DNA of 64,000 nucleotides, from the NCBI GenBank assembly GCA_964357175.1, contig CAYHJU010000002.1, forward strand, positions 598-64,597, read 5' to 3'. Position numbers and translations under genes: made by a program. The notes beneath the pieces were generated by a model. That model saw only the letters and a program-made list of their open reading frames with translations, did not search any database and was not told where the DNA came from. The stretch comes from an uncultured Candidatus Saccharibacteria bacterium (GTDB lineage Bacteria; Patescibacteriota; Minisyncoccia; GWC2-36-17; CAYHJU01). This document shows, in pieces, positions 8,348-38,253 of this stretch (position 1 is the first letter of the stretch; every line of letters begins with the position of its first letter).

Positions 8348-8373
8348 TGTTTTGGAAGAAAAATCCTACAAAT

Positions 8374-10169: not shown

Positions 10170-10170
10170 A

Positions 10171-10266: not shown

Positions 10267-10496
10267 TAAACCCTGTTTATTTCTTGTTATTATCTGTTTA
10301 AAATTAACTAATAAATGTTCCTTAAATAAAATTCAACCTATAAATCAACTGGTTTTATGTTTTAATAAACATTTTATCAACAAAATATTAGTTATTCATA
10401 CCCCATTTTATCAAGTAAATTAACCAAAAAAGAACTTTTTAAACTTATCAACATCCCCAATATACAACTACAACAAATATTTAATTAATTATTATT
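10267..10496. promoter_or_regulatory. candidate oriC (dnaA-dnaN spacer) with DnaA-box-like motifs and an AT-rich unwinding region
   Basis: TTATCAACA at 10374-10382 and 10445-10453. TTATCAAGT at 10408-10416. The interior is extremely AT-rich. Canonical dnaA-dnaN position. Confidence 0.5.
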
Positions 10497-11603
10497 ATGA
10501 TACAAGTCACTTTTACCAAAGATAATTTAATAAAAGGTTTACAAAAAGCCGAAAGATTTACTGGCAAAAACACAACTCTGCCAGTTTTATCTTCGGTATT
10601 ATTAAAAGTTGAAAAAAATAAAGTAAAGCTATATTCCACAGATCTTGAGGTGGGTGCAATATTTGAAGTTTCAGCTAAAACAGAAGAAACAGGTAGCGTG
10701 ATTATTCCAATTAAAAGCGTGATTCAATTTGTACAGAATATAAATAATTCCAATGTAATTTTTAAAATAAAAAAAGATAAATTGATAGTTGAGGGAGATA
10801 ATTACAAAACCTCATTTAATTGTTTAGAGGCGGAAGATTTTCCCGTTATACCGGACAACATAAAAGAAAAATTAATAAGCACAGAATCAGATAAAATGTT
10901 GGAAGGACTAATTAACACGGTTTCCATAATAAATTTTAATTCCAGTCGGCCTGAAATTTCCGGAGTTTTTATTTGTACTCAAAAAAACAGCATAAAGTTT
11001 GTTGGCACTGACAGTTTTAGATTAACAGAGATAGAAACTGCAATTGAACAAAAAAATGAAAAAGAAACATCTTTAATAATACCTTTAAAATTAGGACAGG
11101 AGCTGATAAAAATTTTCCAAGAAGAAAAAAACGAAATTGATATTTATTCAAACCAACATCAAATAATGGTTAAAAGTAAAAACTTTACGATAGTTTCACG
11201 CTTAATTGATGGTTCGTACCCACCCTATGAACAGATAATTCCACGCAATAATAAAACTAAGTTGATTTTAAATAAAAATTCTTTTAAAAAAGGATTAGAG
11301 ATGGCCAGTGTTTTCAGCGGAAAAACGAACGACATGAAATTTTCTTTTGATTTTGAAAAAAACATTTTAAAAATTTATTCTCAAAATAATGAAGTGGGTG
11401 ATTTCTCTTACGAAATAGATTTTGAAGGAGAAGGAGAGAGTCAGGAAATAGTTTTAAACTGGAAATTTTTTCTGGACGGTTTGAATAAAATTGAGGAGGA
11501 AAAATTTATTTTGGAAATTAACAGCGTCATTAGTCCAGTTATTATAAAAGGTCTAAAAAACAGTCACATGCTTTATCTCTTAATGCCCATAAGATCGGTG
11601 TAA
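10497..11603 (+). CDS. dnaN: DNA polymerase III beta sliding clamp
   Basis: N-terminus 'MIQVTFTKDNLIKGLQKAERFTGKNTTLPVLSSVLLKV' is typical of beta clamps. 368 aa. Directly after dnaA. Confidence 0.9.
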   Translation: MIQVTFTKDNLIKGLQKAERFTGKNTTLPVLSSVLLKVEKNKVKLYSTDLEVGAIFEVSAKTEETGSVIIPIKSVIQFVQNINNSNVIFKIKKDKLIVEGDNYKTSFNCLEAEDFPVIPDNIKEKLISTESDKMLEGLINTVSIINFNSSRPEISGVFICTQKNSIKFVGTDSFRLTEIETAIEQKNEKETSLIIPLKLGQELIKIFQEEKNEIDIYSNQHQIMVKSKNFTIVSRLIDGSYPPYEQIIPRNNKTKLILNKNSFKKGLEMASVFSGKTNDMKFSFDFEKNILKIYSQNNEVGDFSYEIDFEGEGESQEIVLNWKFFLDGLNKIEEEKFILEINSVISPVIIKGLKNSHMLYLLMPIRSV

Positions 11604-18903: not shown

Positions 18904-20055
18904 TTAAATTTTCAAAAATAGAAAGAAAGCGGCGGCGGCTGATACTCCGGCAACAACAAACCCCCAGAACATGGTTTTTTTAGGTAAGGATGAAAATTTT
19001 TGAAAAAGGTTATTAGACGAAAATAAATTTTCTAATTTATCCGAGAGCTTGTCCTGCGAAGCGCTTAAATTTGTAGATGAAGAACTTCCAGACTTGAGTC
19101 CGTAGACGTTTAAAAGAGATTCGTTATTGTTTGTATTTGGAGATTTGAATGATGGGATTGCGCCTTGAGATGACGAAGGCCCGCCTATTGGCGGAAAAGA
19201 AGGGTAAGTATAATTTGGGTAAGCCAAGGAGGGGGCGGGAGTTATTTGGGGCGCAGGAGACAAGCTGGCCGACGGGGGAGCCGAATAACTTGGACTTGGC
19301 ACAAAGGACGGCGAGGGTGAGTGTATTGCGCTTGGAGAGGGCGTGGGACTGGGTGAGGGCGATAATAATGCCGAGGGAGACACAGGCGGGCTGGGCGATG
19401 GACTGGGGCTAATACTGGGCGACGGACTGGGGTTTGAAAAAGTATTCTCCTGACCAGGAGTTCCGCCTGTTTGCAAACTATCCTGCCAATTAGAAGGTGT
19501 ATTATTGTCTCCAGCAAGATTTATTTTTGATAAAGATTTTCCGTTGCCATTTCCACCCCAGGCATTTTGATAGATGACTTCATCCAGTGTGTTTCCGTTG
19601 CCATCTATTATTTTTAAAGTAGCGGATGTGTTATTTAAATTTATAGCTGATTTAGTTAAATTCCCAGAAAAAGTTGGATAACTTGTTAGAAAAGTAGATG
19701 TGGCTTGGGCAACAACTAAAAATTCTCCCGGATTAATATTTAACGATCCCATTGTTGGATCGTTTAAATAATGATTTGAGCCATCATAAAATCTAAAAGA
19801 CCCGGCACCTGATCCGGACACGATATTAACCGCGCTGTCGCCTATATTTTTTATCTCTACCCACTCTCTGCCTGTGTCGCTTCCCGGAGATGGTGCGTCA
19901 TACATTATTTCCGAAATTACCAAGCTGTAAGCGCGCGCGTTTAAAACTACAAAATTGCTCAAAGCGCATAAAATTAGAGCTCCAAAAAAGACCCTTTTAA
20001 AACTATCTGCACTTTTCTTATCTGCGTGCAATATTAACGCCTTGGTTTGAATCAT
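18904..20055 (-). CDS. surface protein with lamin-tail-domain (LTD), Pro/Ser-rich low-complexity linker and C-terminal TM anchor
   Basis: 'LVISEIMYDAPSPGSDTGREWVEIKNIGDSAVNI' matches the LTD core. 'PSPSPSISPSPSPSPPVSPS...' linker. C-terminal 'FWGFVVAGVSAAAAFFLFLKI'. Confidence 0.55.
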   Translation of the reverse strand: MIQTKALILHADKKSADSFKRVFFGALILCALSNFVVLNARAYSLVISEIMYDAPSPGSDTGREWVEIKNIGDSAVNIVSGSGAGSFRFYDGSNHYLNDPTMGSLNINPGEFLVVAQATSTFLTSYPTFSGNLTKSAINLNNTSATLKIIDGNGNTLDEVIYQNAWGGNGNGKSLSKINLAGDNNTPSNWQDSLQTGGTPGQENTFSNPSPSPSISPSPSPSPPVSPSALLSPSPSPTPSPSAIHSPSPSFVPSPSYSAPPSASLSPAPQITPAPSLAYPNYTYPSFPPIGGPSSSQGAIPSFKSPNTNNNESLLNVYGLKSGSSSSTNLSASQDKLSDKLENLFSSNNLFQKFSSLPKKTMFWGFVVAGVSAAAAFFLFLKI

Positions 20056-20845: not shown

Positions 20846-21880
20846 TTAGACATTAAAAATATCCTGTTGATTGTTTTTATTTGCATTTTCAAGTCCTAGA
20901 TGTTTGTATCCTAAATCTGTCACCACTCTTCCGCGAGATGTGCGCATTAAAAATCCCAACTGCATTAAGTATGGCTCAAAAACATCCTCAATCGTGTTTT
21001 CGTCTTCATTGGTAGCCGCCGCGATTGCTTGCACTCCGGCAGGTCCGCCGGAAAATTTTTCTATCAATGTGCTCAAAATTTTCCTGTCTGTTGCTTCCAG
21101 CCCCCTTTCATCTATTTCTAAAAGATCCAGTGCTTCCTGAGCTAAATTGGCTACGACCAAATCTTTACCTTTTACTTCGGCAAAATCTCTTACCCTTTTT
21201 AATATTCTATTGGCGATGCGTGGTGTTGAGCGGGAAGAGGCCGCAATTATTCTCAACGCCTCGGGCTCAATGTTTATATTTAAAAGTCGCGATGAATTTT
21301 CCAAAATCTTTTGAATTTCCTGTGTGCTGTAAAATTCCAAGTGCGCGTTTAAGCCAAAGCGCGATCTTAAGGGCGCGGATAATTTCCCGGCCTGTGTGGT
21401 GGCGGCTATTAATGTAAAAGGTTGAAGCTCAAGCTGTATTGTCCTAGCCGAAGGTCCTTTGCCTAAAATTATATCCAAAACTCTGTTTTCCATCGCTGGA
21501 TACAAAATCTCTTCTATCATTTTATTCAAGCGGTGGATTTCATCTATAAATAAAATATCGCCCGCTCCCAAATTGGTCAGTATTGCCGCCAGATCCCCCA
21601 CTTTTTCAATCGCCGCGCCAGATGTTGAATGGAACTGAGAGCCCAGCTCGCGCGCGATAATGTTTGCCAAAGTAGTTTTGCCAAGGCCAGAGGAACCATA
21701 AAGCAATACATGTTCTAGGGCCTCCGATCTTTTTTTGGCGGCATCAATGGCGATTTTTAAATGGGCCTTTACTTTTTCCTGCCCGACATAATGTTCCCAT
21801 TTTTTGGGTCTTAAAATAGTATCAATAGATTGATCTAGGCTGCTATTTTGCGGAGAATTTGGTAATTGTTCTTCCTCCAT
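20846..21880 (-). CDS. ruvB: Holliday junction branch migration ATPase RuvB
   Basis: Walker A 'GSSGLGKTTLANIIA'. Walker B 'ILFIDEIHRL'. RuvB C-terminal winged helix. Confidence 0.9.
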   Translation of the reverse strand: MEEEQLPNSPQNSSLDQSIDTILRPKKWEHYVGQEKVKAHLKIAIDAAKKRSEALEHVLLYGSSGLGKTTLANIIARELGSQFHSTSGAAIEKVGDLAAILTNLGAGDILFIDEIHRLNKMIEEILYPAMENRVLDIILGKGPSARTIQLELQPFTLIAATTQAGKLSAPLRSRFGLNAHLEFYSTQEIQKILENSSRLLNINIEPEALRIIAASSRSTPRIANRILKRVRDFAEVKGKDLVVANLAQEALDLLEIDERGLEATDRKILSTLIEKFSGGPAGVQAIAAATNEDENTIEDVFEPYLMQLGFLMRTSRGRVVTDLGYKHLGLENANKNNQQDIFNV

Positions 21881-22130
21881 GGTTGATTTGGTTTTTAATA
21901 TAATATATAATCTCTCTCACGTATTTTATAAGGCAATTTTGCCACAGGGTGGGCTTAGTCGGAAAATGCTCTTGGGGTTTTAACCCCTCACCAATTTTAC
22001 CAATAATTTAAAGTGTGGCGCGAGGGCGGATAGCCCCGCCCTATTCGGGCAAGCGCCACAAGCTGAAATTTAAGAAAAAATTTAAATTACATCTGGCCAG
22101 CGATAAATAATTGTAAAATTAGTGATGGGG

Positions 22131-22159
22131 TTGACAAGCGTTATTTTCTATGATATACT
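22131..22159 (+). promoter_or_regulatory. near-consensus sigma70-type promoter with extended -10 (TTGACA-17-TGaTATACT)
   Basis: TTGACA at 22131-22136, 17-nt spacer, TATACT at 22154-22159 preceded by TG. No protein gene lies downstream on this strand. Confidence 0.5.
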
Positions 22160-22165
22160 GTTAGC

Positions 22166-22414
22166 AAGATAAAAACCAGCGCTTTTAAACCCCCAGTCGC
22201 CTATCTAAATTCTAAGATTTTTATTCATACAGGTCAATCAGCATACAAAAAATCTGCTTGGTGATCTGCAGATGAGGAAGACGCTCAAAGCGTTTTCATG
22301 GGAAAGTTTTTAGGCCGGATACGCTGGTTCCGACTGGGGTACTCCTCGAAACTTTCCTAAGTCCCGTTATCATTGGCGGGTATTCGTCTGCAGTTTACCG
22401 GGCAGATTTTTTAT
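22166..22414 (+). ncRNA. candidate ~250-nt small non-coding RNA of unknown family
   Basis: Bracketed by the promoter above and a hairpin (tctgc..gcaga) plus T6 terminator at about 22386-22414. The longest plus-strand ORF inside is 13 codons. Contains the long stem ggaaagttt/aaactttcc. Confidence 0.3.
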
Positions 22415-22419
22415 GATTT

Positions 22420-25400
22420 TTATTCTTCTCCCAACGCTCTTTCTACTTCTTCCCAGGTCGTGAGGCCTTTGAGGATTTTAATGATTCCATCCTGCCTTAA
22501 AGTTATCATTCCTATTTCTTCAGCCTTTTTTTCAAGCTCCTGCGACGGGGCTTCTTTTAATATCAATGAACGGAATTCGTCATTGGGAATTAAGATTTCA
22601 AAAAGTCCGATCTGTCCAAAGTATCCCGTGAAATTACAATATTCACATCCTTTAGCTATAGGCGCTTCGTGGGGCTTTTTAATATCTTTAGAAATTTTTG
22701 ACCTAAAGTCCTTAGGTAGATTTTCTAGTTCTTTTTCGGCCACACCCTCTTGCTTGGTTGTTAATTTTTGTGAAACGGAGCATTTTGGACAAACTTTTCT
22801 TACTAGACGTTGAGCGATCGCCGCGTTTATGCTTGAAGCGATGTCAGAAGTAGAAATTTTCATATTGCGTAAACGGGCGATTGTGCCTACGGCATCGTTT
22901 GTGTGTAGCGTCGAAAGCACCAAGTGCCCCGTCAAGGATGCTTGTACGGCGGCTTGCGCCGTTTCCTCGTCTCTGGTTTCTCCGATCAATATAATATTTG
23001 GATTTTGTCTAAGTAGAGACTTTAAAGCAGAGGCAAAAGTATATCCTTTGGACTCATCTACCTGTGTCTGAGTGATTCCTTCAAGCGTATATTCTATCGG
23101 GTCTTCAATGGTTATTATTTTTACATTTGGACTATTTAAGATATTCAAAACAGAATACATCGTGGTCGTTTTTCCTGAACCAGTAGGACCTGTCGAAAGA
23201 AGTATGCCGTTTGGTTTTTTGATTTCTTCTTGAAGCAATGAAAGATTTTCTTCATCAATGCCCAGATCTTTCAAGGTCAAACTGGCGATGCCGCCTGAAA
23301 GTATTCTCAACACAGACGTTTCACCGTAGCCGCCTGGAATTATAGAAACGCGCACATCTTGCGCCTTGTCTTTAAATTTTACATTAAATCTACCCTCCTG
23401 AATCTGATTTTTAATTTCAGTTTTAAGTCCTGAAAGTATTTTTATCTCACCGATTAATGAAGGAAAAACATTCATTGGAATATCGGCTACGTCTTGTAGC
23501 ATGCCATCGACGCGATATCTTATCTTGCCAGTATTTTTTTCTGCCTCCACATGAACGTCAGTGGCGCGTGATTTTATGCCCCCAGCCATAACCAAGGCCA
23601 ATTTTCTTTCGTTTGAAGAATCTTCTATCAATTTTTTCAGGCCATCTTTTTCTTTTAGTGCGTCTTTGATATTTTTCTCTTCATCCTCGGTAATTTTTAC
23701 GCCACGAGTTAAAGTTTGAGAAATTAATTCAGCAAATAAAATTTCGACGTATTCCAATCCACCTACCACTCTATATACTTCATCCAAATCTGTAATACCA
23801 TCAATTACTTTAAAAAGTCCGTCCTGAAGCATTGTCACCATGCCTTGATCTATTGCTGCCATTCTTATGTCAGACGTAGTTGCTCCCCGAAGTGCCAGAT
23901 CCTCCATTTTTTTATCCATCGAAAATATTTCATATATTCCTATCTGTCCCGAATATCCCAAACCAAAACATTTCTCGCAACCTCTGGCTTTCCATGCCCT
24001 GCTAATGCTTTTTGGTATTTCAACTTTAGCGCGGGGGGAGATTATAGAAAAAGTCTTCGTCATTCCTTCCTGAGTTTTTTCGTCGATCTCATATTTTTCT
24101 TTGCAATCAGGGCAAAGCCGTCTTACTAATCTTTGCGCCATAATCACACTTAAAGAAGATGGTAGGGTTTTTTTATCTACACCTAAATCTACGAGTCTGG
24201 GTATTGTGCCAGCCGCTTCATTTGTATGAAGCGTGGAAAGTACCAAGTGTCCGGTCAAGGATGCTTGTACAGCGATAGAGGCGGTTTCATTGTCGCGAAT
24301 TTCTCCTACAAGTACGATGTCGGGATCTTGGCGAACTACAGCGCGCAGTCCGTTGGAAAAAGTATATCCACCCTTTTCGTCTACTTGTGTTTGTACGACG
24401 CCTTTTATTTTATATTCTACTGGATTTTCTACTGTTATTATTTTTATGCCAGGCTTATTTACCTCCTGAATGGCTGTGTATAGAGTCGTGGTTTTTCCGG
24501 CGCCTGTTGGTCCGGTGGTTAAAATCATTCCGTTTGTTTTTTCAAGTCCAAGCCTTAATATTTTTAATGCCTCAGGGCGTAATCCTAAGCTTTCCAATTT
24601 CAATTTAGAAACATCCATCGTCAATAGTCTCATTACGATAGACTCTCCAAAATGTTCAGGTATTATAGAGACCCTGACATTGACGGTATTTATAGTGGTG
24701 CCTTTTTCTTGTATAAAAATCGCAAAGCGTCCATCTTGGGCGATGTTGTGCACATTGATAATCAATTTGGCAAAAAGTTTTACGCGGGAAAGTATTTGGT
24801 TGTAGTTGTCTTTAGAAAACTCCGCTATATCTTGCAAGACGCCATCTATTCTGTAGCGTAATCTCAGAACGTCGTGTTCTGGCTCAAAATGAACATCTGA
24901 CGCCTTGGAGTGAAGCGCTCCAGCCAGTATCGCATTTAATACGTCTGTGATAGATGCCGTGGTTATATGTTTTTTTAAATCCTCTAAGGTCTTTATATTT
25001 TTTTGAAACTCATCTAATTCTGAGCTATCCAAAAACCACTCTTCCTGCAAAGGCGCCGAGGGAGTCACTACGGATTCATATCTTTTCAACCCTATTTTTA
25101 TGGAAGAAGGGGAGGCCAAGAAAGGGCTTATATCAAATCCCTGATCTTTTTTAAGACCCTCTAAGGTTTTTTGAGTGGCGGGGCGCGCAGGATCTTCTAC
25201 CGCTACCCAGATTTTTTTAACTTGCCTTTTTAGGATAATTAAAGCGCTTTCTTCCGCCTCCTCTTTTTTTATCAAAGCCAATGCCTCCAGGTCTATGGGC
25301 GTGTGCAACAAATCAACATAGGGCAAGCCTGCGCTTTGGGCGCGTTCCTGTGTCCTCTCTTCTTCTTCTCGCCTACGAAGCTCCTCAAGTTTTGTTTGTT

Positions 25401-25431
25401 GTTTGGTTTTGCTGAATTTATTTAAAGTCAT
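22420..25431 (-). CDS. pilB: tandem double-ATPase PilB/GspE-family type IV pilus/secretion ATPase (two complete ATPase cores in one 1003-aa polypeptide)
   Basis: Two Walker A boxes (GPTGAGKTTT, GPTGSGKTTT). Two Asp/Walker B boxes (DPDIVLVGEIRD, NPNIILIGETRD). Two His boxes (LSTLHTN twice). Two tetracysteine motifs (CPDC..CEKC, CPKC..CEYC). A single N-terminal GSPII_E_N-like region. Confidence 0.8.
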   Translation of the reverse strand: MTLNKFSKTKQQTKLEELRRREEEERTQERAQSAGLPYVDLLHTPIDLEALALIKKEEAEESALIILKRQVKKIWVAVEDPARPATQKTLEGLKKDQGFDISPFLASPSSIKIGLKRYESVVTPSAPLQEEWFLDSSELDEFQKNIKTLEDLKKHITTASITDVLNAILAGALHSKASDVHFEPEHDVLRLRYRIDGVLQDIAEFSKDNYNQILSRVKLFAKLIINVHNIAQDGRFAIFIQEKGTTINTVNVRVSIIPEHFGESIVMRLLTMDVSKLKLESLGLRPEALKILRLGLEKTNGMILTTGPTGAGKTTTLYTAIQEVNKPGIKIITVENPVEYKIKGVVQTQVDEKGGYTFSNGLRAVVRQDPDIVLVGEIRDNETASIAVQASLTGHLVLSTLHTNEAAGTIPRLVDLGVDKKTLPSSLSVIMAQRLVRRLCPDCKEKYEIDEKTQEGMTKTFSIISPRAKVEIPKSISRAWKARGCEKCFGLGYSGQIGIYEIFSMDKKMEDLALRGATTSDIRMAAIDQGMVTMLQDGLFKVIDGITDLDEVYRVVGGLEYVEILFAELISQTLTRGVKITEDEEKNIKDALKEKDGLKKLIEDSSNERKLALVMAGGIKSRATDVHVEAEKNTGKIRYRVDGMLQDVADIPMNVFPSLIGEIKILSGLKTEIKNQIQEGRFNVKFKDKAQDVRVSIIPGGYGETSVLRILSGGIASLTLKDLGIDEENLSLLQEEIKKPNGILLSTGPTGSGKTTTMYSVLNILNSPNVKIITIEDPIEYTLEGITQTQVDESKGYTFASALKSLLRQNPNIILIGETRDEETAQAAVQASLTGHLVLSTLHTNDAVGTIARLRNMKISTSDIASSINAAIAQRLVRKVCPKCSVSQKLTTKQEGVAEKELENLPKDFRSKISKDIKKPHEAPIAKGCEYCNFTGYFGQIGLFEILIPNDEFRSLILKEAPSQELEKKAEEIGMITLRQDGIIKILKGLTTWEEVERALGEE

Positions 25432-25700
25432 ATGTTAAAATCTAAAAAATTAAATCTCAAATCTTAAACTTAGAATCTTAGCTTAACTGGTTTTTTCTTT
25501 TCAGTAACTTAATAATAACCCAAATGACAGTGGTTTTCAATTTTTCTCGCCGAAGCTATGGTGAAGCGGGCCGGCGGACAGGCTCAGGTCCCGCCCTACC
25601 TTTTAATATTGACTAATTTAGATGATTATGGTAACTTTTTATCAAGTCCTCGGAGCGGTTCCGAGGCGACGGAGTTGTTCCTTAAAAAAGGAGGAAGGGC

Positions 25701-26204
25701 ATGCTAAGTTTCTTGGCGATACACGCACTTGCATTTTCTCTTCTAGCGATTTGGTCCGCATTGGTTATGACGGTTGTTGTGGGTTGTTTTAAATCGGAAA
25801 GTAAAACGCGTAAGCTTGAGATGATTATAGGTTCGTTTACGATGTCTATTCTGGTTTACGTTTTTATAAACGTGTCAGATGTGAAGGGTGGTTTTCGTGA
25901 CTTTTTCGCCTTTAGTCTTGCTCTTTTTCTTTGTAGTTGTGGCGCGCTCATTGGCGATATTCTTCTTCAAAAAAGCGCATCAAGTATCTCAAGTGAACAA
26001 GCGAATTTGCAAGAAGGCTGTTGTGGCGTAAAAGATTGCCGTTGTGGTGACGCTTGTCCAAAAAAAATCGGCGCTCGTCCAGTTTTTCCACCCAATATGC
26101 TCGTTTCCGAGACTGGGCTGAGGCTCGGCGCATATTTTCCGACAAAGGACAAGCCTAAAGACGGCGATCCTCCAAAGAGTGGAAGCGGCGTTGAAAATTC
26201 ATAA
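25701..26204 (+). CDS. membrane protein with C-terminal Cys-rich motif (CCGVKDCRCGDACP), hypothetical
   Basis: GGAGG RBS 8 nt upstream. Three or four TM helices. G+C is visibly higher than in neighbouring genes. Confidence 0.4.
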   Translation: MLSFLAIHALAFSLLAIWSALVMTVVVGCFKSESKTRKLEMIIGSFTMSILVYVFINVSDVKGGFRDFFAFSLALFLCSCGALIGDILLQKSASSISSEQANLQEGCCGVKDCRCGDACPKKIGARPVFPPNMLVSETGLRLGAYFPTKDKPKDGDPPKSGSGVENS

Positions 26205-26212
26205 AAAATAAT

Positions 26213-26256
26213 CCCCCAGTCCTTTTGGTGATAAACCAAAAGGACTGGGGGATTTT
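26213..26256 (+). terminator. rho-independent terminator (14-bp stem)
   Basis: cccccagtcctttt / aaaaggactggggg followed by attttg. Confidence 0.65.
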
Positions 26257-26285
26257 GTTATTTAAAAAAATTTTAACTCATCAAC

Positions 26286-27347
26286 CTACACGCAAGAAAG
26301 TTTTTGTAAAATATCTCTTACTATAAATCTCATATCCTCTTTATTTTTCATCTGTCCGGCGCTGAAAGTAACTGTCTGATTTTGTTCTCGTTCCGAGCGG
26401 TCTTGCCCTGAGTGCGCCGAACCCGTCGAAGGGCCCAAAATGCCCAAAACCTGATTTTTTACTGAGGAAGGGGTTTCTAAAATTCCCAAAACCTGTTGGC
26501 CGGACGGTTCTTGAATTAAAATACACACAAATTTTGATTTAGCGCTTAAATTTTTATATAGATCAAGTATTTCTACCACATCGTCAAAGCTTGTCTGGGT
26601 TTTTTCTAAATCTGATCGAGTAATTACTCCCAAAGTAGTGGAAGACGAAGCATCAAAAATTGTGCGCGCCAGCAGTCGTCCCAAAATCTGTCTCTGATTT
26701 TGTTTGGGAGAAGTCGGAGAAGCCAGAGATGTGGTCTCAGGTTTTAATCTCCAGGAAAAAATATCAGAGACGACCTGTGTGCAATTTTTAGCATCTGAAT
26801 CATTTATAAAAAATCCTGACTTTGTTTGTTTTATATAAGAAGAGTGGCTGATGGTGATAATCGGTTTTTGGGGATAGTCGTCCGGTAGTGATTGCTCTAA
26901 AAAATCGAGACCATCATCGCACAGTACTATGAAAAGATCTGGCGCTTGCTGTTGTAGCGCATTAATTAAAGAATTATTGCTCAGCAGAATGTCGGTTTTT
27001 TTCAGAGGAGATAAAAGTCCCTCAAAAAATATCGTCAGGTCATTGCCATTTTTTTCGTACCTCAATCCTTTAAGATTTTTCTGATTTAAATTTACAGTTA
27101 AGGCCACCTCAGCATTCGCTTGGTGCGGCAGAAGCGTTGAAGAGTGCGAGATTTTTTTGAAAGTTTCTATGTGGCTGTCAGGCAGACAGACAAAAGATTT
27201 TTTATTTTCTTTATGAAGAAGATTAGAGAGAAATCCTGACGCGTAAATACTCTCTTCCTGTGTTGGCGAAGGGATGATAAAAACCTGTTGGCTTTTATCC
27301 AAAATGTCGTTCAATTTATATTTTTGTTCATCTGTTATATAGGGCAT
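26286..27347 (-). CDS. hypothetical protein (degenerate DHH/NrnA-like architecture, not verified)
   Basis: 353-aa ORF. No catalytic DHH or GGGH motifs were seen. Confidence 0.35.
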   Translation of the reverse strand: MPYITDEQKYKLNDILDKSQQVFIIPSPTQEESIYASGFLSNLLHKENKKSFVCLPDSHIETFKKISHSSTLLPHQANAEVALTVNLNQKNLKGLRYEKNGNDLTIFFEGLLSPLKKTDILLSNNSLINALQQQAPDLFIVLCDDGLDFLEQSLPDDYPQKPIITISHSSYIKQTKSGFFINDSDAKNCTQVVSDIFSWRLKPETTSLASPTSPKQNQRQILGRLLARTIFDASSSTTLGVITRSDLEKTQTSFDDVVEILDLYKNLSAKSKFVCILIQEPSGQQVLGILETPSSVKNQVLGILGPSTGSAHSGQDRSEREQNQTVTFSAGQMKNKEDMRFIVRDILQKLSCV

Positions 27348-27503
27348 ATAATTTGATTTTTGCGCAATATGCTCTTTGGGTCTTTATACTTAAGAGGGTA
27401 GTTTAGTATCGGCGCCTTCAGAAGTCAATATTTTATGTGTTCAATTGACATATTTGAGTATCACATTTATTATGCAGTTAAGTTCTTTAAAAAGGAGAAC
27501 AAA

Positions 27504-27968
27504 GTGAGCTCAAAAAAGAAAGATCCATATCCGGAAATAACCAAGGCCTTGCGTCGTGGGCGTGTGCTGGCAAAAAAACTTCTTAAAATGGAAGGTGGAG
27601 TAATGCCCGCCGAAGAAGTGGCAACACTATTAGATGTTTCTTCTGATGAAGTTTTTCGGCTTCGCACGAAAGGACTTTTGCTTGCGGTTAAGGTGAGGGT
27701 GTTCCCAAGAAATCCGAATTTTTTTAAAAATGTTTATCCTCGTTGGCAATTTGACGAAAAAGAAGGCAAGCAGATTGAAGGATTTAAGGATGTCCTAGAA
27801 GCACTAAGGGAGAATGTTAATGTTGATGATGATAATTGGAGAAAATTTATGTTTTTCTTTTGCAAGGCTAAGAGTTTAAAAAAGACTCCGCTTGAAGAAT
27901 TACGTGAAGGCAATATTGAGGGCGTCGTTTTAGCGGCTCAAGGATACGGAGAACAAGGAGGATGGTAA
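27504..27968 (+). CDS. hypothetical protein (possible HTH)
   Basis: GTG start with AAAGGAG 6 nt upstream. The in-frame ATG at 27435 lacks an SD. A hairpin terminator follows. Confidence 0.35.
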   Translation: MSSKKKDPYPEITKALRRGRVLAKKLLKMEGGVMPAEEVATLLDVSSDEVFRLRTKGLLLAVKVRVFPRNPNFFKNVYPRWQFDEKEGKQIEGFKDVLEALRENVNVDDDNWRKFMFFFCKAKSLKKTPLEELREGNIEGVVLAAQGYGEQGGW

Positions 27969-27981
27969 TTAATAAGCATGT

Positions 27982-28008
27982 ACCCGACTCAATGAGTCGG
28001 GTTTTTTA
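27982..28008 (+). terminator. rho-independent terminator
   Basis: acccgactc aatg agtcgggt followed by tttttt. Confidence 0.65.
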
Positions 28009-28048
28009 TTTAGAAAGCGTCTCGTCTATGATATAATTCAATTAGTTT

Positions 28049-28498
28049 ATGGAGAAAATTTTTCATACAAAAAATTTAAAAGAAACTCAAAATCTCTCTG
28101 AAAAAGCCATTGAAATCGCTAAAAAACAAAGCAGGAAAAATGCGGCGGTTTTGGGGCTTGTTGGAGATTTGGGCGGAGGCAAAACATCTTTTACGCAGGG
28201 TTTGGCAAAAAATTTGGGCATTAAAAAAGAGATTTTAAGCCCTACATTTATTTTGATGCAAAGCTATCCGCTTTCAGGCAAAAAATTTCCATGGAAAGAC
28301 TTTTACCATCTAGACGCTTACCGCGTAAAATCATCAAAAGAAATTTTGAGGTTGGGATTTGAAGAAATTATAAAAGACAGCCAAAATATAGTCGTGGTGG
28401 AGTGGGCCGATATCATAAAAGACATTATGCCTAAAAATACGCTCTGGATAGAATTTGAGTGGCTGGATGAAAATGAGAGAAAGATAACCCTGAACTAA
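28049..28498 (+). CDS. tsaE: tRNA threonylcarbamoyladenosine biosynthesis protein TsaE (YjeE ATPase)
   Basis: P-loop 'LVGDLGGGKTSFTQGLAK'. About 150 aa, typical TsaE size. Confidence 0.75.
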   Translation: MEKIFHTKNLKETQNLSEKAIEIAKKQSRKNAAVLGLVGDLGGGKTSFTQGLAKNLGIKKEILSPTFILMQSYPLSGKKFPWKDFYHLDAYRVKSSKEILRLGFEEIIKDSQNIVVVEWADIIKDIMPKNTLWIEFEWLDENERKITLN

Positions 28499-28549: not shown

Positions 28550-31237
28550 ATGGAGAAAGAAACAAAAAATAAAAAAACACTTCTACTTTTAGATTCAAAC
28601 GGGCTTATTCATCGCGCTTATCATGCCTTGCCTCCTATGTCTAACCCCAAGGGCGAGATGGTGAACGCTGTTTATGGATTTATTAGTATTTTGCTTAGGG
28701 TTTTAAAAGAAATAAAACCGGATTTTGTGGCAGCGACTTTTGATTTAGCTGGCCCGACATTTCGCCATGAAGCATTTGCCGAGTATAAAATTCATCGTCC
28801 AAAAATGGATGATGATCTGGTAAAACAATTGCCATTGATTAGAGAGGTGGTGGGCGCTTTAAATATTCCAGCCTATGAAAAACAAGGATTTGAAGCGGAT
28901 GACGTGATAGGCACGATCTCATCATTGGTTTCTAAAAAACACAAAGATGTTGAGGTGATTATTTTAAGCGGCGACATGGACACTTTGCAACTGGTAGAGA
29001 AAAATGTGCGAGTTTATACATTTAAAAAAGGCGTGAGCGATGCAATGATTTATGGAGAAAAAGAGGTTTTAGAGAGATACGGGCTAACTCCCTCGCAGGT
29101 GGCTGATTTTAAAGGTTTAAAAGGCGACCCATCAGACAATATCCCGGGAGTGCCGGGCATAGGCGACAAGTCGGCATCTGCGCTTTTGCAACACTTCGGA
29201 AACATAGAAAAAATCTACAAATATCTTACAGGTAAGAAAAAAGATGCCAAGGCGGAAAAAATCATTAAGCCTAAGATGCGCCAGTCGTTGGAAGAAAATA
29301 AAGATCAGGCATTTTTCAGCCGAGAGCTTGCCACAATAAATTCAAAAGTTCCCGTAAAATTCAAACTGGAGGATTCTAAATTTAGCGAGAAAGATTTGCA
29401 AAACGACAAGCTTTATAAATTCATACAATCGATGGGATTTTTCAGTTTGATTTCACGCTTAAACTCCCAAGAGAAATTATTTGAAAGTCCGCAAATATCT
29501 CCTGTCTCTTCTGTAAAACAAGAAAACATTTTTGAAAAATCGTCTAAAAACTTTAAAAGCGATTCTGATTTTGAAAAAAAGCTTGAAAAATGTGAAAAGG
29601 TAGGGATTTTTTGCCATGACGATAAAATTTTCACCTTGCTTGATTTAGGAGATAAAAAAGAATCCTTTGAAATTCCCCAGGAAAATTTCCCCTTTGATAA
29701 ATTTTGGCAAAAATTAAACAGCGGCGAGTTGAAGCTGAAAGTTTTTGATTTTAAAGAGTTGCTCCACGTCGGAAATTGCGATTTGGAAAAACATCCAAAA
29801 ATTCGCCATGCTGATTTTTTTGACATTAAAATTGCCGCTTGGATTTTGCGCCCAGGAGAGCGCGATTATAGTTTAGAGAAAATATTTTTTTCACACACCA
29901 AAGAAAAACTGGAAAGTATTCACGACACAACAGCCCATCTTTTTAGGTTAAGCGACATTTTGGAAGAAAAAATTTCTCAAATAAATCTGCAAGATGTCTT
30001 ACAAAAAATTGAACAGCCTCTGAGCATCGTTCTTTATCAAATGGAAAAGCGCGGCATAGCTTTAGATAAATCTATTTTGGCAGATCTTAATAAAAAAATA
30101 GACAAAGAGATTGAAAAATCCGAAAAGGAAATCTATAAATTGGCGGGCACGGAGTTTAATATCAGCTCACCCAAGCAACTTTCTGAAATTTTATTTAAAA
30201 AATTAAAAATTGAAACCCAAGATTTGCGCAAAACGCCGGGCGGCGTGTTGTCCACGCAGGCGTCGGAATTGGAAAAATTAAAGGATAAGCACAAAATAAT
30301 TGATTGGATACTTCAATATCGCGAAATGACAAAATTAAAAACCACCTATGTCGTGCCCCTGCCTCTTTTGGTGGACACGTCTTCAAGAATTCACACAAAT
30401 TTCAATCAGGAGGGCACGGCCACTGGGCGGCTTTCTTCAGACAATCCTAATTTGCAAAATATTCCTACTCGCTCTAGTTGGGGTACAGCCGTCAGGCGGG
30501 CTTTTGTGGCGCAAAAAGGCTACAAGCTTGTGTCTTTTGATTATTCACAAATAGAGCTTAGGGTTGCGGCATCTTTGGCGCACGATAAAAAAATGCTCCA
30601 GATATTTAAGGAGGGAAAAGATATTCATGCGATGACCGCAGCGGAAATTGAGGGTGTTTCCGAAAAAGAAGTGACGTCAGCTTTGCGCAGAGAGGCAAAA
30701 ATTTTAAATTTCGGAGTACTTTATGGCATGAGCGCGCAAGGATTTTCAGAGGCGGCGGGTGTTTCGCGCGAAAGAGCGGGCGAATTTATAAAACAGTATT
30801 TTAAAACATTTGAGGGGGTCGCTCAGCTTGTGGAGAATTTAAAAAATCAAGTTAAGGCCAAAGGATATGTGGAGACGCTCACGGGTCGTCGCAGATATCT
30901 GCCGGAGATTTATGCTTCAAATTGGCATATTCGCCAGGCGGCAGAGCGCGCGGCGATAAATATGCCGCTTCAAGGGCTGGCGGCGGATATTTTAAAGATG
31001 GCGATGATTAAAATTTATGATGATATTTTGGAAAAACAAAGTCCCGAAGACATTCGTATGATTTTACAGGTGCACGACGAACTTGTTTTTGAAATAAAAG
31101 AAGACAAGGTGAAAGATTTTGTTTCCAGCATTAAAAATATAATGGAGCAAAGTTATAAGTTGGAAGCGCCAGTGGTCGTTGACGCAAAAGAAGGAGATAA
31201 TTGGGGAGAGTTAGAAGAAATTCACCCTGTTAAATAA
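28550..31237 (+). CDS. polA: DNA polymerase I (5'-3' exonuclease + polymerase; 3'-5' exo region apparently inactive)
   Basis: N-terminal 53EXO/FEN motifs. Pol A motifs 'RRAAKILNFGVLYGMSAQG' and 'QVHDELVFE'. The central region lacks the DxE exonuclease triad. Confidence 0.9.
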   Translation: MEKETKNKKTLLLLDSNGLIHRAYHALPPMSNPKGEMVNAVYGFISILLRVLKEIKPDFVAATFDLAGPTFRHEAFAEYKIHRPKMDDDLVKQLPLIREVVGALNIPAYEKQGFEADDVIGTISSLVSKKHKDVEVIILSGDMDTLQLVEKNVRVYTFKKGVSDAMIYGEKEVLERYGLTPSQVADFKGLKGDPSDNIPGVPGIGDKSASALLQHFGNIEKIYKYLTGKKKDAKAEKIIKPKMRQSLEENKDQAFFSRELATINSKVPVKFKLEDSKFSEKDLQNDKLYKFIQSMGFFSLISRLNSQEKLFESPQISPVSSVKQENIFEKSSKNFKSDSDFEKKLEKCEKVGIFCHDDKIFTLLDLGDKKESFEIPQENFPFDKFWQKLNSGELKLKVFDFKELLHVGNCDLEKHPKIRHADFFDIKIAAWILRPGERDYSLEKIFFSHTKEKLESIHDTTAHLFRLSDILEEKISQINLQDVLQKIEQPLSIVLYQMEKRGIALDKSILADLNKKIDKEIEKSEKEIYKLAGTEFNISSPKQLSEILFKKLKIETQDLRKTPGGVLSTQASELEKLKDKHKIIDWILQYREMTKLKTTYVVPLPLLVDTSSRIHTNFNQEGTATGRLSSDNPNLQNIPTRSSWGTAVRRAFVAQKGYKLVSFDYSQIELRVAASLAHDKKMLQIFKEGKDIHAMTAAEIEGVSEKEVTSALRREAKILNFGVLYGMSAQGFSEAAGVSRERAGEFIKQYFKTFEGVAQLVENLKNQVKAKGYVETLTGRRRYLPEIYASNWHIRQAAERAAINMPLQGLAADILKMAMIKIYDDILEKQSPEDIRMILQVHDELVFEIKEDKVKDFVSSIKNIMEQSYKLEAPVVVDAKEGDNWGELEEIHPVK

Positions 31238-35202: not shown

Positions 35203-35277
35203 TCCGCGGTAGCTCAGTGGTAGAGCAGGCGACTGTTAATCGCTTGGTCGCTGGTTCGAATCCAGCCCGCGGAGCCA
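35203..35277 (+). tRNA. tRNA-Asn (anticodon GTT), CCA encoded
   Basis: Cloverleaf folded by hand. Acceptor TCCGCGG/CCGCGGA. D-arm GCTC-AGTGGTA-GAGC. Anticodon loop CTGTTAA. T-arm GCTGG-TTCGAAT-CCAGC. Discriminator G plus CCA. Confidence 0.9.
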
Positions 35278-36879
35278 TGTGGGATGAGCAGAGCCAAAAG
35301 CTCTGCTTTTCTCTTTATCTACGGGCTTTTTTAGCGGTTCGAATGTTGTATTTTTGTCTGTATTTTCTCCCAACATCTGTGATACTCGTTCAAATACCAT
35401 TTTGAAGGCTTTCTGGTATGAAATCTCAACTTTTTTGCCATTTATAATGGGGTTCGAAAATAAAAGGGACAAAAGTTGTTTCTTGTCGTCGACCATTTCG
35501 ATTGTGCTTCGATTCAAATAAATTCTCCTTGCCTCTTTAGCCATTTGTAAAAAGGTTGACCCCATATCGTAATACTTGAGGTTGGCATTTTTGTGCTTAT
35601 TCAAACCGTCCAGCACTTCCTCCTGTTCAATTTTGTATTGCTGGTACTTTTTCTGGTAGAAGTCCTCACTAATCTTGCCATCGATCTTATCATCGTAGAT
35701 CTTGTCCAGTCTCTGCGTGGCTACTTGGTAGCGTCGCTCGAGTTCGCCGGTGGCCTTTTGTCTGAATTCTATCTCCTCGCCGTGGCTTTCTTTGAGAGCC
35801 TCTTGGACCCAAGTCAGCATATTCTCTATGGCCTCATCGTGTTTTGAGCTTAAGTGTTCGATATTTTCCATTACTTGCAGGTCAATGTTCTCTTGTTTGA
35901 CCCATTCCTTTTGCTGGCAGTTTTTATAATGATTGCAGTGGCCATACCAGTGGCCTTTTTGTATCTCCCAAGTTATCCGGCCTTTACATTCCTCGCAGTG
36001 GAAGACATTTTTAAATAATGGATTGTGCTTGTTGTACTTCGGCGTGCCATTACTATGCATGATGTCTTGGCATCGCATGAATAATTCTTTGGTTATAAGT
36101 GGTTCGTGTCCGCCTTGAGCAACTTTTCCATTCCAGCGATTCATTCCGTAATAAAACGGATCACCAAGTAATTGGTGGACTCGTGAGTGACTGACTTTAT
36201 TTCCTCCCCGAGACCGCATGCCGAGTTTATGCATTTCATCGGCCAGTTTTTTGGTTGAGTAGCGATTGGAGGCATAAAGGTCAAACATCTTTTTGACCAG
36301 CGGAGATTTGTCCGGATCAATGATGTGGATTTTGTGCCCCTTCTCGCCAGTGGTTTGATATCCGAGTGGCGGTTTGCTTGGTAGCCAGCCTTGAGCCAGC
36401 TTTTCTTTTTGTCCCTTTTTCACATTCTCGGAAAGCAGACGGATATAATATTCGGCCGTGGCCACTTTGACTCGCCACATAAACCATTCGTGCGACTTGG
36501 AGTCTTTGTGGAGTGTACAGCCTTCTTTGACGAGGTGGATTGTGTGTCTTTCGTCCGCCAGTATCCATTCGTCAATTATCGGCACATCGGCGAAGTTACG
36601 GGTTAGGCGGTCGGTGGTTTCCACGAAGACCGTATTGATCTTGGCTTTGGTCACATAGTCCAGCATCTCGTGGAATATCTTGCGTTGGATTTTTCCGGCC
36701 GCCGATTCTTGAATGGCAAAAACTTTTACCAGATCAAAACCGTTTCTATCGGCATAATCGTGTAAAAGTTTTTCTTGAGCTGGTAGTGAGTAGCCAGTGT
36801 CTTCTTGGTCTTTGGAAGAGACACGGGCATATCCTACGGCTCGCATCGATTCATTTTCGTTTTGCATTGTCATAGTCAT
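35236..36879 (-). CDS. large serine recombinase (phage-type integrase)
   Basis: Resolvase catalytic domain 'AVGYARVSSKDQ'. Recombinase domain. Zinc ribbon 'CEECKG...HCNHYKNC'. Coiled-coil. The 3' end reads antisense through the tRNA-Asn 3' half. Likely real start at 'MRAVGY' (about 36846). Confidence 0.8.
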   Translation of the reverse strand: MTMTMQNENESMRAVGYARVSSKDQEDTGYSLPAQEKLLHDYADRNGFDLVKVFAIQESAAGKIQRKIFHEMLDYVTKAKINTVFVETTDRLTRNFADVPIIDEWILADERHTIHLVKEGCTLHKDSKSHEWFMWRVKVATAEYYIRLLSENVKKGQKEKLAQGWLPSKPPLGYQTTGEKGHKIHIIDPDKSPLVKKMFDLYASNRYSTKKLADEMHKLGMRSRGGNKVSHSRVHQLLGDPFYYGMNRWNGKVAQGGHEPLITKELFMRCQDIMHSNGTPKYNKHNPLFKNVFHCEECKGRITWEIQKGHWYGHCNHYKNCQQKEWVKQENIDLQVMENIEHLSSKHDEAIENMLTWVQEALKESHGEEIEFRQKATGELERRYQVATQRLDKIYDDKIDGKISEDFYQKKYQQYKIEQEEVLDGLNKHKNANLKYYDMGSTFLQMAKEARRIYLNRSTIEMVDDKKQLLSLLFSNPIINGKKVEISYQKAFKMVFERVSQMLGENTDKNTTFEPLKKPVDKEKSRAFGSAHPTWLRGLDSNQRPSD

Positions 36880-36977
36880 AATTTTGTTAATTTTACTAAG
36901 GTTCGAATTCGACTTTTGGTCTCAAGACACAACATACGCTATTTTTTCGGACAAGCTAAGCTCGAGTTGCCCACAGC

Positions 36978-37412
36978 TCATTTTTGTTGTTTTTTCTTGA
37001 CGCTTTCTAGTATTTCCGTGATGCGATAATAGTCTCGCTCATAGTCTTCGTCTGTATGGCCACCTCTTATACCGTTCTCGGATGGCGGACCGCTGACAAT
37101 GTCTAAAATTGCTTTAGCGGCTCGGAATTTCATTGCATCACTTTTGGCTCCCATAAGTGAGACCAAGATGTTGGCCGCAGTTACAGAATATTTCGCCAGT
37201 ATGGTATCCATTTCTTTATCACGAGTACTGTTTCTTTCTTTTTCGTATCGGTCGTATTCGTCTTTCAGTAAGCCATCTGACCGAAACCATCTCTTTACAC
37301 TGACATGAGAGACTTTAAGCATCCGGGCAATCTCTAAATAAGTAAAATCGCCATATTTTAAGCGGATCGCATTCTGATATTTTTCATTTTTTATGTCTAC
37401 AGATTTAGCCAT
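36978..37412 (-). CDS. HTH DNA-binding protein (terminase-small-subunit/excisionase-like), hypothetical
   Basis: 'YLEIARMLKVSHVSVKRWF' helix-turn-helix near the N-terminus. Confidence 0.4.
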   Translation of the reverse strand: MAKSVDIKNEKYQNAIRLKYGDFTYLEIARMLKVSHVSVKRWFRSDGLLKDEYDRYEKERNSTRDKEMDTILAKYSVTAANILVSLMGAKSDAMKFRAAKAILDIVSGPPSENGIRGGHTDEDYERDYYRITEILESVKKKQQK

Positions 37413-37500
37413 TTGGGTATCACTTAGTATCGTTTAACGATTGTTTATTATCGGCTTTTTGCTCATTTCGTTGCCCAATGTTGCCGTTTATAACCAAAAA

Positions 37501-38073
37501 TCATTTGTTTTGTAGGGTCATCTTGGCTACGAGTTTAGCTCTGGCCTCGGCCAAGAGTTTTAAATTCTTTGACCGGCCGTTAATTTCTTTATTATTTTCT
37601 TTAATTTCTTTTAATCCCTTATCTTCTATATCTTCTGCACCGGAGGCAGTCTGCGTGCTATGCCGTCCGGCTTTTGATGCTGATTGGTTTCCACCCTGCG
37701 TCAGATGTAGGACGGAAAGCAAAGTGATACCTCGGGGCTTGAACTTGGCGTCCTCGCCCCGAGTTTTCGTGATTGCGATAAAAGCCCACTCCTCGAGTTT
37801 GGACAAACAATTCTTAATCGTTCGCCAGTCTTTGAGTCCGGAATAAATCAAAAGCGTTTTGTTGGACGCCTCTATGGTTTGACTGGCTTTGTTGGAGGCA
37901 ATCTCGGTCAAAGCCAGATACATGTTCCGGAGATTCCGGTAGGCATCAATGCTTATATGCTTATCGAGCCATTGTTGTCGCATGTACCGCAAAGCTGGCT
38001 TATCTTGGTAAGCAAACGGCAATTCGCGATAATCCCTGATCTTATGTGGTTTGTCGCTCGGGTACTGTGTCAT
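37501..38073 (-). CDS. hypothetical island protein
   Basis: 190-aa ORF co-directional with the recombinase. Confidence 0.3.
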   Translation of the reverse strand: MTQYPSDKPHKIRDYRELPFAYQDKPALRYMRQQWLDKHISIDAYRNLRNMYLALTEIASNKASQTIEASNKTLLIYSGLKDWRTIKNCLSKLEEWAFIAITKTRGEDAKFKPRGITLLSVLHLTQGGNQSASKAGRHSTQTASGAEDIEDKGLKEIKENNKEINGRSKNLKLLAEARAKLVAKMTLQNK

Positions 38074-38251: not shown

Positions 38252-38253
38252 AT

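Follow-up and report, generated by a model that had tools for sequence, protein, structure and literature searches.

A tandem PilB/GspE-class ATPase with two complete modules in one chain at a ruvB-linked locus of Patescibacteria

Introduction

Motors of the PilT/VirB11 family form hexamers in which six rigid packing units are strung together by flexible linkers; each unit combines the N2D of one chain with the C-terminal domain (CTD) of the next, N2D(n)+CTD(n+1) (PMC6858323; PMC5424180). Current models regard PilB-type motors as homohexamers whose diametrically opposite subunits fire in pairs. All solved PilB structures show two-fold (C2) symmetry in the pattern 'CCOCCO' (PMC6858323), and three-fold (C3) 'OCOCOC' states have been described for PilT, FlaI, DotB and the archaeal GspE2 (PMC6858323; PMC5424180). 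Two arginine fingers are universally conserved in the superfamily, and a tetracysteine motif, which is common to BfpD/TcpT and is not present in FlaI/GspE2 and PilT/PilU, marks the PilB/GspE extension-type clade (McCallum et al., 2017; PMC5424180). Here, we report on an open reading frame (ORF) in 64,000 nucleotides of DNA from an uncultured Candidatus Saccharibacteria bacterium (assembly GCA_964357175.1, contig CAYHJU010000002.1, positions 598 to 64,597; this whole stretch is called the window in the following), which encodes two complete ATPase modules of the PilB/GspE class in a single chain, and on the family of tandem proteins to which it belongs.

Type IV pili are prominent in the candidate phyla radiation (CPR) and of central importance for the episymbiosis and the DNA uptake of Patescibacteria (PMC6744442; PMC11623550). 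An orphan extension motor has been described in Acinetobacter baylyi, where TfpB cooperates with PilB and its gene lies away from pilC (PMC8213720). Our overall reading of the gene in the window, namely a tandem extension motor that originated by duplication, forms a ring of three chains and acts in the assembly of a filament, is moderately probable in our judgement, and its single parts are weighed separately below.

Results

One reading frame with two complete ATPase modules

The gene is located at 22420..25431 on the minus strand, as are all of its parts given below, starts with ATG and encodes 1003 aa plus stop. Pfam recognizes one MshEN/N1 domain and two T2SSE stretches (PF00437), the latter with 743 bits in total at a cut-off of 24.9, and the NCBIfam models assign 885 bits for GspE and 865 bits for PilB to the whole protein, each split over two stretches. 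The features of the T2SSE superfamily (PilT/VirB11-like; Walker A, Asp box, Walker B and His box) are found twice per chain, which is ordered as N1, module A (N2D-CTD), one linker helix and module B (N2D-CTD). N1 (MshEN/GSPII_E_N-like, residues 35-120, 25072..25329) is matched by PF05157 with 37.5 bits and is predicted by AlphaFold2 (AF2) as an alpha/beta domain with a block-mean predicted local distance difference test (pLDDT) score of 85-92. A second N1 ahead of module B is absent according to Pfam, which agrees with the single N-terminal GSPII_E_N-like region noted in a previous sequence-only reading of this DNA. Module A consists of pre-N2D helices, N2D and CTD at residues 130-557 (23761..25044), as supported by the scores of hidden Markov models (HMM), Foldseek and AF2 secondary structure, and module B comprises the same elements at residues 577-1003 (22423..23703). 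Between them lies the linker (residues 558-576, 23704..23760), predicted as a helix at 560-573 followed by a low-confidence break. The junction is thus found at ~23.70-23.76 kb and not at 23.9-24.1 kb, where it had been placed before. The two halves share 42% protein identity over 423 aligned residues (E = 1e-118), and on the DNA level the similarity is only patchy, with ~68% identity in the patches.

For a comparison of the motifs, 118 tandem proteins, i.e. the query and 117 relatives, were aligned with MAFFT, and all counts of this kind refer to this set. Walker A reads GPTGAGKT in module A (307-314, 24490..24513; G307, P308, T309, G310, G312, K313 and T314 invariant in 118/118) and GPTGSGKT in module B (748-755, 23167..23190; K754 invariant in 118/118, G751 replaced by Ser in 8/118). 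The Asp box is TVENPVEY in module A (333-340, 24412..24435), with E335, P337, E339 and Y340 invariant, and TIEDPIEY in module B (774-781, 23089..23112), with E776, D777, P778, E780 and Y781 invariant in 118/118. Walker B with the catalytic Glu corresponds to IVLVGEIRD (372-380, 24292..24318; G376, E377 and R379 in 118/118) and IILIGETRD (813-821, 22969..22995; G817, E818, R820 and D821 in 118/118), respectively. The His box, TGHLVLSTLHTN in either module, is found at residues 393-404 (24220..24255; T393, G394, H395, H402 and N404 invariant) and 834-845 (22897..22932; G835, H836 and H843 invariant). The tetracysteine (zinc) motif is formed by C440, C443, C485 and C488 in module A (23968..24114) and by C881, C884, C929 and C932 in module B (22636..22791), all eight being present in 118/118 proteins. 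Altogether, the Walker A Lys, the Asp-box Glu-x-Pro-x-Glu, the Walker B Gly-Glu-x-Arg, the His-box Gly-His, the second His and the four Cys are invariant in both halves of all proteins. The same is true for the N2D arginines of the VRVS and GE..V.R motifs (R253/R268 and R694/R709), which are presumably the arginine fingers of the superfamily, as judged from an alignment with EpsE and from the EpsE literature.

These data confirm, with exact coordinates, the two full sets of GspE motifs which the sequence-only reading had seen in the 1003-aa frame. Its statement that both halves keep their catalytic residues stands insofar as none is lost from either half in the 118 proteins, and the loss of Walker A or B residues that it had named as a possible refutation did not occur. 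It needs correction for the Asp-box Asp of half A, which is an Asn in the window protein (N336). Position 336 is occupied by D in 108/118, N in 8/118 and K in 2/118 proteins, and the window protein retains both glutamates of this Asp box (E335 and E339).

The MshEN motif for binding of cyclic di-GMP (c-di-GMP) was found in the N1 of 0/118 family proteins with strict as well as loose patterns, and c-di-GMP regulation via MshEN was rejected on this ground. The motif searched for, RLGxx(L/V/I)(L/V/I)xxG(L/V/I)(L/V/I)xxxxLxxxLxxQ, reportedly goes back to work of Wang et al. from 2016. In a promoter scan, the match counts were not above the shuffled expectation, and a -35/-10 match ~80 nt upstream of the ATG carries no weight.

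Assignment of the two halves

When the PilB, PilT and GspE models were applied per half, as had been suggested earlier, half A alone reached 477 bits for GspE, 464 for PilB and 170 for PilT, and half B 420, 412 and 174 bits, respectively. Both halves contain the tetracysteine motif, their PilB/GspE scores exceed those for PilT, and N1 is present once, i.e. the marks of the PilB/GspE clade are found. By sequence, both halves are therefore assigned to the PilB/GspE extension type and not to PilT, and a PilB-PilT fusion combining extension with retraction is ruled out since both halves score far higher for PilB/GspE than for PilT and both carry the four Cys. Neither half reaches the NCBIfam cut-offs of 675.65 bits for PilB (TIGR02538) or 630.25 bits for GspE (TIGR02533), and the 865 bits of the whole protein for PilB result solely from the summation of two stretches; therefore, we do not file the halves as strict PilB or GspE equivalogs. 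With regard to GspE, no genes of a type II secretion system (T2SS) were found in the 64-kb window, and the GspE equivalog level is missed as well.

A family of tandem proteins

The fusion is a real gene, neither a recent duplication nor an artefact. A protein search over 5.8 billion proteins listed 120 matches, of which 118 measure 968-1034 aa and extend over 96-100% of the query with 42-88% identity; one 968-aa entry among the listed matches is 100% identical to the query. They originate from NCBI, JGI, ENA and Logan assemblies, and the named ones are called GspE/PulE family protein or PilB and assigned to Patescibacteria, Parcubacteria or Moranbacteria. The tandem architecture recurs in more than 100 protein clusters from differing assemblies and sources. 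When 1.84 billion cluster representatives were scanned exhaustively with HMMER, full-length tandems made up ~14 clusters at the level of 50% identity, and ordinary PilBs of 550-600 aa ranked after them with ~40% identity. The survey of related genomes called for by the sequence-only reading thus revealed a whole tandem family, with forms of one, two and three modules in the same locus. Separate genes joined by error, which that reading had regarded as its refutation, are not what was found, given the more than 100 clusters and the conserved synteny of the fetched loci. A recent or artefactual duplication can be dismissed because only patchy DNA identity of ~68% remains between the halves, and an assembly duplication in particular is ruled out by this patchy similarity together with the 42% protein identity of the halves and the conservation throughout the family.

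The sequences are already public under generic annotations, for example KKU82539.1 from Parcubacteria GW2011_GWA2_47_8, a tandem deposited at NCBI under the name 'General secretory pathway protein E', and the family as such is apparently undescribed. No description of a tandem PilB/GspE was found in the open-access texts and excerpts consulted, including a PilB review from 2024; subscription journals were not covered. Some taxon labels are doubtful: one tandem (P0104) is called 'Candidatus Bathyarchaeia archaeon', a related contig 'Planctomycetales', and the slot genes of a 'Saccharibacteria' chromosome (L021; the slot is the syntenic position of the ATPase gene) are ~70% identical to those of 'Paceibacterota' metagenome-assembled genomes (MAGs). 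Such odd labels (P0104, L020, L021) suggest mis-binning or mislabelling, and the names need caution.

A split form was observed in locus L028 (140-2970) and identically in L029, where a 536-aa A-type and a 407-aa B-type gene overlap by ATGA within the linker and are flanked by A-homopolymers, then followed by ruvB. The split could be genuine, resulting from fission or preceding the fusion, or it could stem from a frameshift error, which is equally likely.

Two diverged modules under comparable selection

Among orthologues, core A has a mean pairwise identity of 64% and core B one of 61%; therefore, selection on both modules is comparable. Few differences are specific to one half. The pre-N2D helices show 25% mean identity in B versus 51% in A, and R216, N226, Q232 and P258 of the N2D are invariant in A and variable in B, where the position of R216 is taken by N, E, Q or S. 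Moreover, RQ-D-P in A (116/118) is opposed to RQ-N-P in B (118/118), which corresponds to an exchange of D369 for N810. In the linker, Y566 and R576 are nearly invariant across the family. From these patterns the modules are non-identical, mainly in the N2D, and neither of them has decayed. Both keep their catalytic and zinc residues under purifying selection, and both probably bind and hydrolyse ATP.

Predicted structure

The AF2 model of the full chain, based on a family alignment of 85 sequences, has a mean pLDDT of 87.6 and a predicted template modelling score (pTM) of 0.51. The succession of one strand, three helices, N2D and CTD at ~130-557 is repeated at ~577-1003; therefore, the duplication unit would be a module of ~430 aa, which equals the short single ATPases in length (see below). 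The helix at 560-573 of the linker has a pLDDT of ~65, which falls below 50 at 573-575. A sub-construct of CTD_A, linker and N2D_B reached a pTM of 0.63 with a 15-sequence alignment, the CTD making up most of the construct. Foldseek against the PDB gave Geobacter PilB, Thermus PilF and Vibrio GspE/EpsE as top matches with target TM-scores of ~0.9 and 36-43% identity. Each of them covers a single module, the best query TM-score being 0.36, and a solved chain with the tandem layout was not found in this search.

Forms with one, two and three modules and their origin

The slot is filled by ATPases of different length. Short forms of 431-441 aa consist of N2D and CTD only and come from MAGs labelled as Paceibacterota, Saccharibacteria, Parcubacteria or Minisyncoccales. 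A 565-aa form (P0146) has N1 and one module, and no remnant of a second module was found downstream of it. Proteins of ~1000 aa are present in the window and in P0002 (88% identity), P0084, P0132 and P0133, and a 1460-aa protein (P0004, L003 10001-14383) harbours three modules, with Walker A and Walker B each occurring three times. The contig scan for these forms used peptide patterns of the query, which mainly yielded short forms and do not represent an unbiased census. The third module of P0004 shares 57% protein and 68% DNA identity with its own second one (bootstrap 73%), and it is therefore not regarded as an assembly repeat; modules 1 and 3 of this protein show one CxxC each under a simple pattern.

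The tandem is a lineage-specific elaboration of an orphan PilB-like gene that is found phylum-wide in Patescibacteria. A neighbour-joining tree was calculated from the 400-aa module cores of 26 tandems, one triple and 124 single-module proteins, in which the B modules of the main family cluster together (bootstrap 62%). In P0133, the two halves share 67% identity and are mutual sisters (bootstrap 100%), and in P0132 they share 51% (bootstrap 92%); hence, at least two further two-module cases are independent or homogenised. We infer that the second module most likely originated from internal duplication of the ~430-aa N2D+CTD unit, which is favoured because the slot is shared with single-module forms. 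A descent of module B from the short ~432-aa CPR ATPase is not supported, as the short forms cluster apart from the B modules.

The ruvB-linked locus

The tandem gene is embedded in a conserved order, which reads PolA/5'-3' exonuclease, TsaE (both divergent), DHH-like protein, PilB-like ATPase, RuvB, YebC and RuvC, and which was detected from PolA to RuvC in ~25 Patescibacterial loci when the neighbours were compared by tblastn with all fetched loci. It spans 20846-28498 of the window and the loci L001-L027 and L031, and the ATPase alone varies in module number. Downstream of the ATPase gene follows ruvB (20846..21880, minus strand), identified by the RuvB P-loop in its translation, which holds this place in nearly all related loci with 51-90% identity; beyond it lie genes for a bPH_2 protein, an LTD protein, YebC and RuvC. 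The conserved upstream neighbour (26286..27347, minus strand) encodes a diverged DHH-like protein of 353 aa, which is 82% identical to its counterpart in L025, gave no Pfam or NCBIfam match and is only weakly similar to the DHH proteins which L003 and L026 encode in this place (E 2e-5 and 2e-4). These two relatives match Pfam DHH, and NrnA only distantly. An identity of this neighbour as RecJ, i.e. a link to DNA uptake, was considered and dropped, as there is no RecJ signal and only distant NrnA likeness. Beyond the DHH-like gene, TsaE (28049..28498, plus strand) and PolA (28550-31237) were recognized by Pfam, both in positions that are conserved in the related loci.

Further features of the window were noted beside this gene order. 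A hairpin at 26210-26254 has a perfect 20-bp stem with 10 G-C pairs and T-runs on both strands, resembling a bidirectional terminator. It is flanked by the DHH-like gene and by a conserved membrane ORF of 167 aa that is rich in Cys (25701-26204, plus strand; 29% identical to its L025 counterpart). The lamin-tail-domain (LTD) surface protein (18904-20055) contains a long Ser/Pro-rich low-complexity tract, and in L001, L003 and L025 LTD proteins hold the same place downstream of RuvB and bPH_2. Genes resembling those of type IV secretion systems (T4SS) are found at 281-5234, including a VirB4/TraG-type P-loop ATPase (281-2077) and a small protein of the T4SS_pilin family (3628-4059); in L025 and L026, further members of this family follow a few genes after the tandem ATPase. 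The neighbourhood of the replication origin (6633-11603) comprises genes for a jag/KhpB-like R3H protein, yidC, rnpA, dnaA (8709-10169) and dnaN (10497-11603), and the GC content drops to 27.8% at 10-12 kb. At 35203-51914, a probable integrated defence island begins with a tRNA-Asn gene (35203-35277, plus strand), which is overlapped by a serine recombinase ORF (35236-36879, minus strand), followed by an SNF2 helicase (40078-43137), a BRO-N protein, an N6/N4 DNA methylase, a ResIII helicase with a TnsA-like nuclease domain and a reverse transcriptase (48355-49851), and ends with a PD-(D/E)XK nuclease and a TIR-domain protein (50616-51914).

Discussion

A proposed ring of three chains and its possible function

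If the linker is flexible at one point, the two modules of a chain could supply two adjacent positions of a ring, and three chains would close a single ring whose six ATPase modules alternate as A-B-A-B-A-B, with only three N1 anchoring domains. Such a ring corresponds to the trimer of dimers which the sequence-only reading had envisaged and which seems reasonable. The three-module form would give the same six modules as a dimer. By analogy with the known hexamers, we regard this single ring as the most likely assembly and favour it slightly, a view that gains support from the module numbers per chain, as six is divisible by two as well as by three. The positions i and i+3 of such a ring would always be one A and one B, so that C2 pair-firing would couple an A site with a B site, and C3 states would separate all-A from all-B. 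The ring would power the assembly of a type IV pilus or a competence-like filament via a PilC-type platform, with platform and pilins encoded elsewhere in the genome. A filament role of this ruvB-linked motor gains support from the prominence of type IV pili in the CPR and from the precedent of TfpB.

Several observations weigh against this picture. The role in filament assembly is derived from family membership, and genes for PilC, PilM, PilT or PilD were not found in the 64-kb window, nor was a pilin-type signal motif at the N-terminus of any of its ORFs, nor any pilus gene in the 20 kb around ~25 related loci. The specialised pilus which the sequence-only reading had envisaged is accordingly not supported by the window, where pilin, PilC, PilM and PilT genes are missing and the slot adjoining ruvB belongs to a conserved housekeeping setting. 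Both halves also stay below the PilB and GspE cut-offs. The pTM values of full chain and sub-construct fix no inter-module geometry. R216 and Q232, which are also conserved in Vibrio GspE, are lost from the N2D of module B, and module B may work differently as a consequence. In the tree, the separation of A modules from single PilBs has a bootstrap of 3.5% and the sister relation of A and B in the point tree one of 2%, and the main family could alternatively have originated from a fusion of two older paralogues. Finally, the repeated duplication at the same locus which P0132, P0133 and P0004 indicate could alternatively be gene conversion between the halves.

An artefact, by which adjacent PilB genes were joined through a frameshift or sequencing error or a repeat was collapsed or duplicated, would find an argument in the separate genes of L028 and L029 with their overlap beside A-runs, but these two loci are 100% identical in DNA and count as one observation, and it is rather their break next to homopolymers that is likely to be the error. 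The unbroken ORF is kept in more than 100 distinct clusters from independent assemblies at 42-88% identity, the linker carries its nearly invariant Y566 and R576, and the halves share merely 42% identity, which makes this explanation practically negligible. The divergence of the halves leads to another explanation, in which one module is a degenerate regulatory pseudo-ATPase and only three sites per ring turn over ATP, comparable to the non-catalytic alpha subunits of the F1-ATPase. The four N2D residues missing from B, two of them conserved in GspE, the far more variable pre-N2D region of B and the Asn in the Asp box of module A in the window protein fit this idea. However, neither module shows any exchange in the 118 proteins at the Walker A Lys, the Walker B Glu, the His box, the N2D arginines or the zinc Cys, the overall core conservation is nearly equal, and a site for binding only would be expected to lose its catalytic Glu at such a depth of divergence; we consider a pseudo-ATPase improbable.

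The arrangement of the modules allows a different alternative, too, i.e. a stacked double ring of six chains, in which the A ring engages the platform and the B ring beneath it serves as second or regulatory tier. Tandem P-loop ATPases often stack, and KaiC, ClpB/Hsp104, p97/NSF and EccC of the type VII secretion system have two or three P-loop ATPase domains per chain which are arranged as tiers. The location of the N1 anchoring domain on module A only agrees with such tiers, AF2 leaves the geometry unfixed, and the correlated B-specific changes (R216 to N/E/Q/S, D369 to N810) would fit contacts between modules of the same type. On the other hand, N2D(n)+CTD(n+1) rings face the platform with their pore, which leaves a distal ring without obvious substrate, both modules have full catalytic sets and equal evolutionary rates, two and three modules both divide six, though the triple is a single case, and no stacked ring appeared among the PilB, PilT, PilF, GspE, BfpD, DotB and PilU structures from the PDB fold search. 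Stacking is therefore unlikely in our view, though less so than a pseudo-ATPase. A more radical departure would be a role outside pili, in a DNA transaction or another cytoplasmic task together with RuvB, RuvC, YebC, PolA and the DHH-like phosphoesterase. In its favour, an operon-like order with ruvB, yebC and ruvC is kept across Patescibacteria, and no pilus gene lies near any locus examined. Yet N1, the zinc motif and the scores at PilB/GspE level are hallmarks of filament motors, CPR genomes are small and highly syntenic, so the adjacency may be historical, and the DHH-like neighbour is distantly NrnA-like with no RecJ signal. Moreover, TfpB shows that an extension motor may be encoded away from pilC. 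All in all, a non-pilus role appears quite improbable to us, and we retain the three-chain ring acting in filament assembly.

Comparison with known systems

Among solved structures, PilB provides the best sequence matches (E ~1e-100). The PilBs of Geobacter metallireducens (5TSG/5TSH/6OLJ) and G. sulfurreducens (5ZFR) and the Thermus PilF (5IT5/5OIU) have the same N2D+CTD fold as each module, and the likeness extends to Walker A and B, the Asp and His boxes, the tetracysteine motif and the N-terminal N1. However, the known PilBs have one module per chain and form homohexamers, whereas the tandem has two diverged modules with one N1 per two; furthermore, its gene does not adjoin pilC or pilD and neither module reaches the PilB equivalog level. 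The GspE/EpsE proteins of Vibrio (1P9R, 4KSR/4KSS, 4PHT) have the same motifs and zinc site, and the halves score slightly above PilB for this family, but the tandem architecture and the scores of each half below the GspE cut-off set the window protein apart. A classical T2SS is unlikely because Patescibacteria are without the outer-membrane secretin PilQ (PMC6744442).

Conceptually, TfpB and PilB of A. baylyi come close, since a single pilus there requires two diverged ATPases of the extension class, i.e. two non-identical extension modules cooperate, and TfpB likewise is encoded by an orphan gene away from pilC (Ellison et al., 2021; PMC8213720). In A. baylyi they are separate proteins, proposed for initiation versus processive extension and possibly forming separate hexamers, whereas the tandem modules are covalently joined 1:1. 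It is a tentative and on balance rather doubtful proposal that Patescibacteria repeatedly turned a ruvB-linked homohexamer into a covalent pseudo-hexamer (2x3 or 3x2) with non-equivalent modules, for example one for platform engagement or initiation and one for processive extension. If true, it would be a hard-wired version of the division of labour between PilB and TfpB, and the three-fold, not two-fold, symmetry of an ABABAB ring might match a trimeric PilC/GspF-type platform. The PulF platform has been reported to be trimeric, to which the three N1 per ring may be relevant (PMC10790770). Moreover, it would offer a natural single-chain system to decide between firing of opposite pairs (C2) and of alternating triplets (C3). 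Rings of homohexamers do not allow individual sites to be altered; a tandem with fixed ABABAB order would, and Walker mutants of a single module would lead to distinguishable C2 and C3 predictions. Irrespective of this proposal, a ruvB-linked orphan motor that is present phylum-wide in 1x, 2x and 3x forms would represent an unrecognised piece of the Patescibacterial pilus machinery.

Related proteins are the short (~432 aa) and single (565 aa) ATPases of the slot, which occupy the same syntenic position, share 43-49% identity with the modules, have one module per chain and are not grouped with module B in the tree. Like module B, the short form consists of N2D and CTD only and lacks N1. With respect to assembly logic only, the folds being unrelated or distant, a parallel exists to the sliding clamps, in which the beta-clamp has 3 domains x 2 chains and PCNA 2 x 3, and to F1 with its alpha3beta3 hexamer of alternating paralogues: six folds per ring are attained as 2x3 or 3x2, with alternating sites. 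KaiC, ClpB/Hsp104, p97/NSF and EccC resemble the tandem in having several P-loop domains per chain and belong to different ATPase families. Compared with all these systems, the fold and the chemistry of the tandem ATPase are ordinary; it is the conserved covalent 2x/3x architecture at a phylum-wide ruvB-linked locus that would surprise a specialist for pilus motors.

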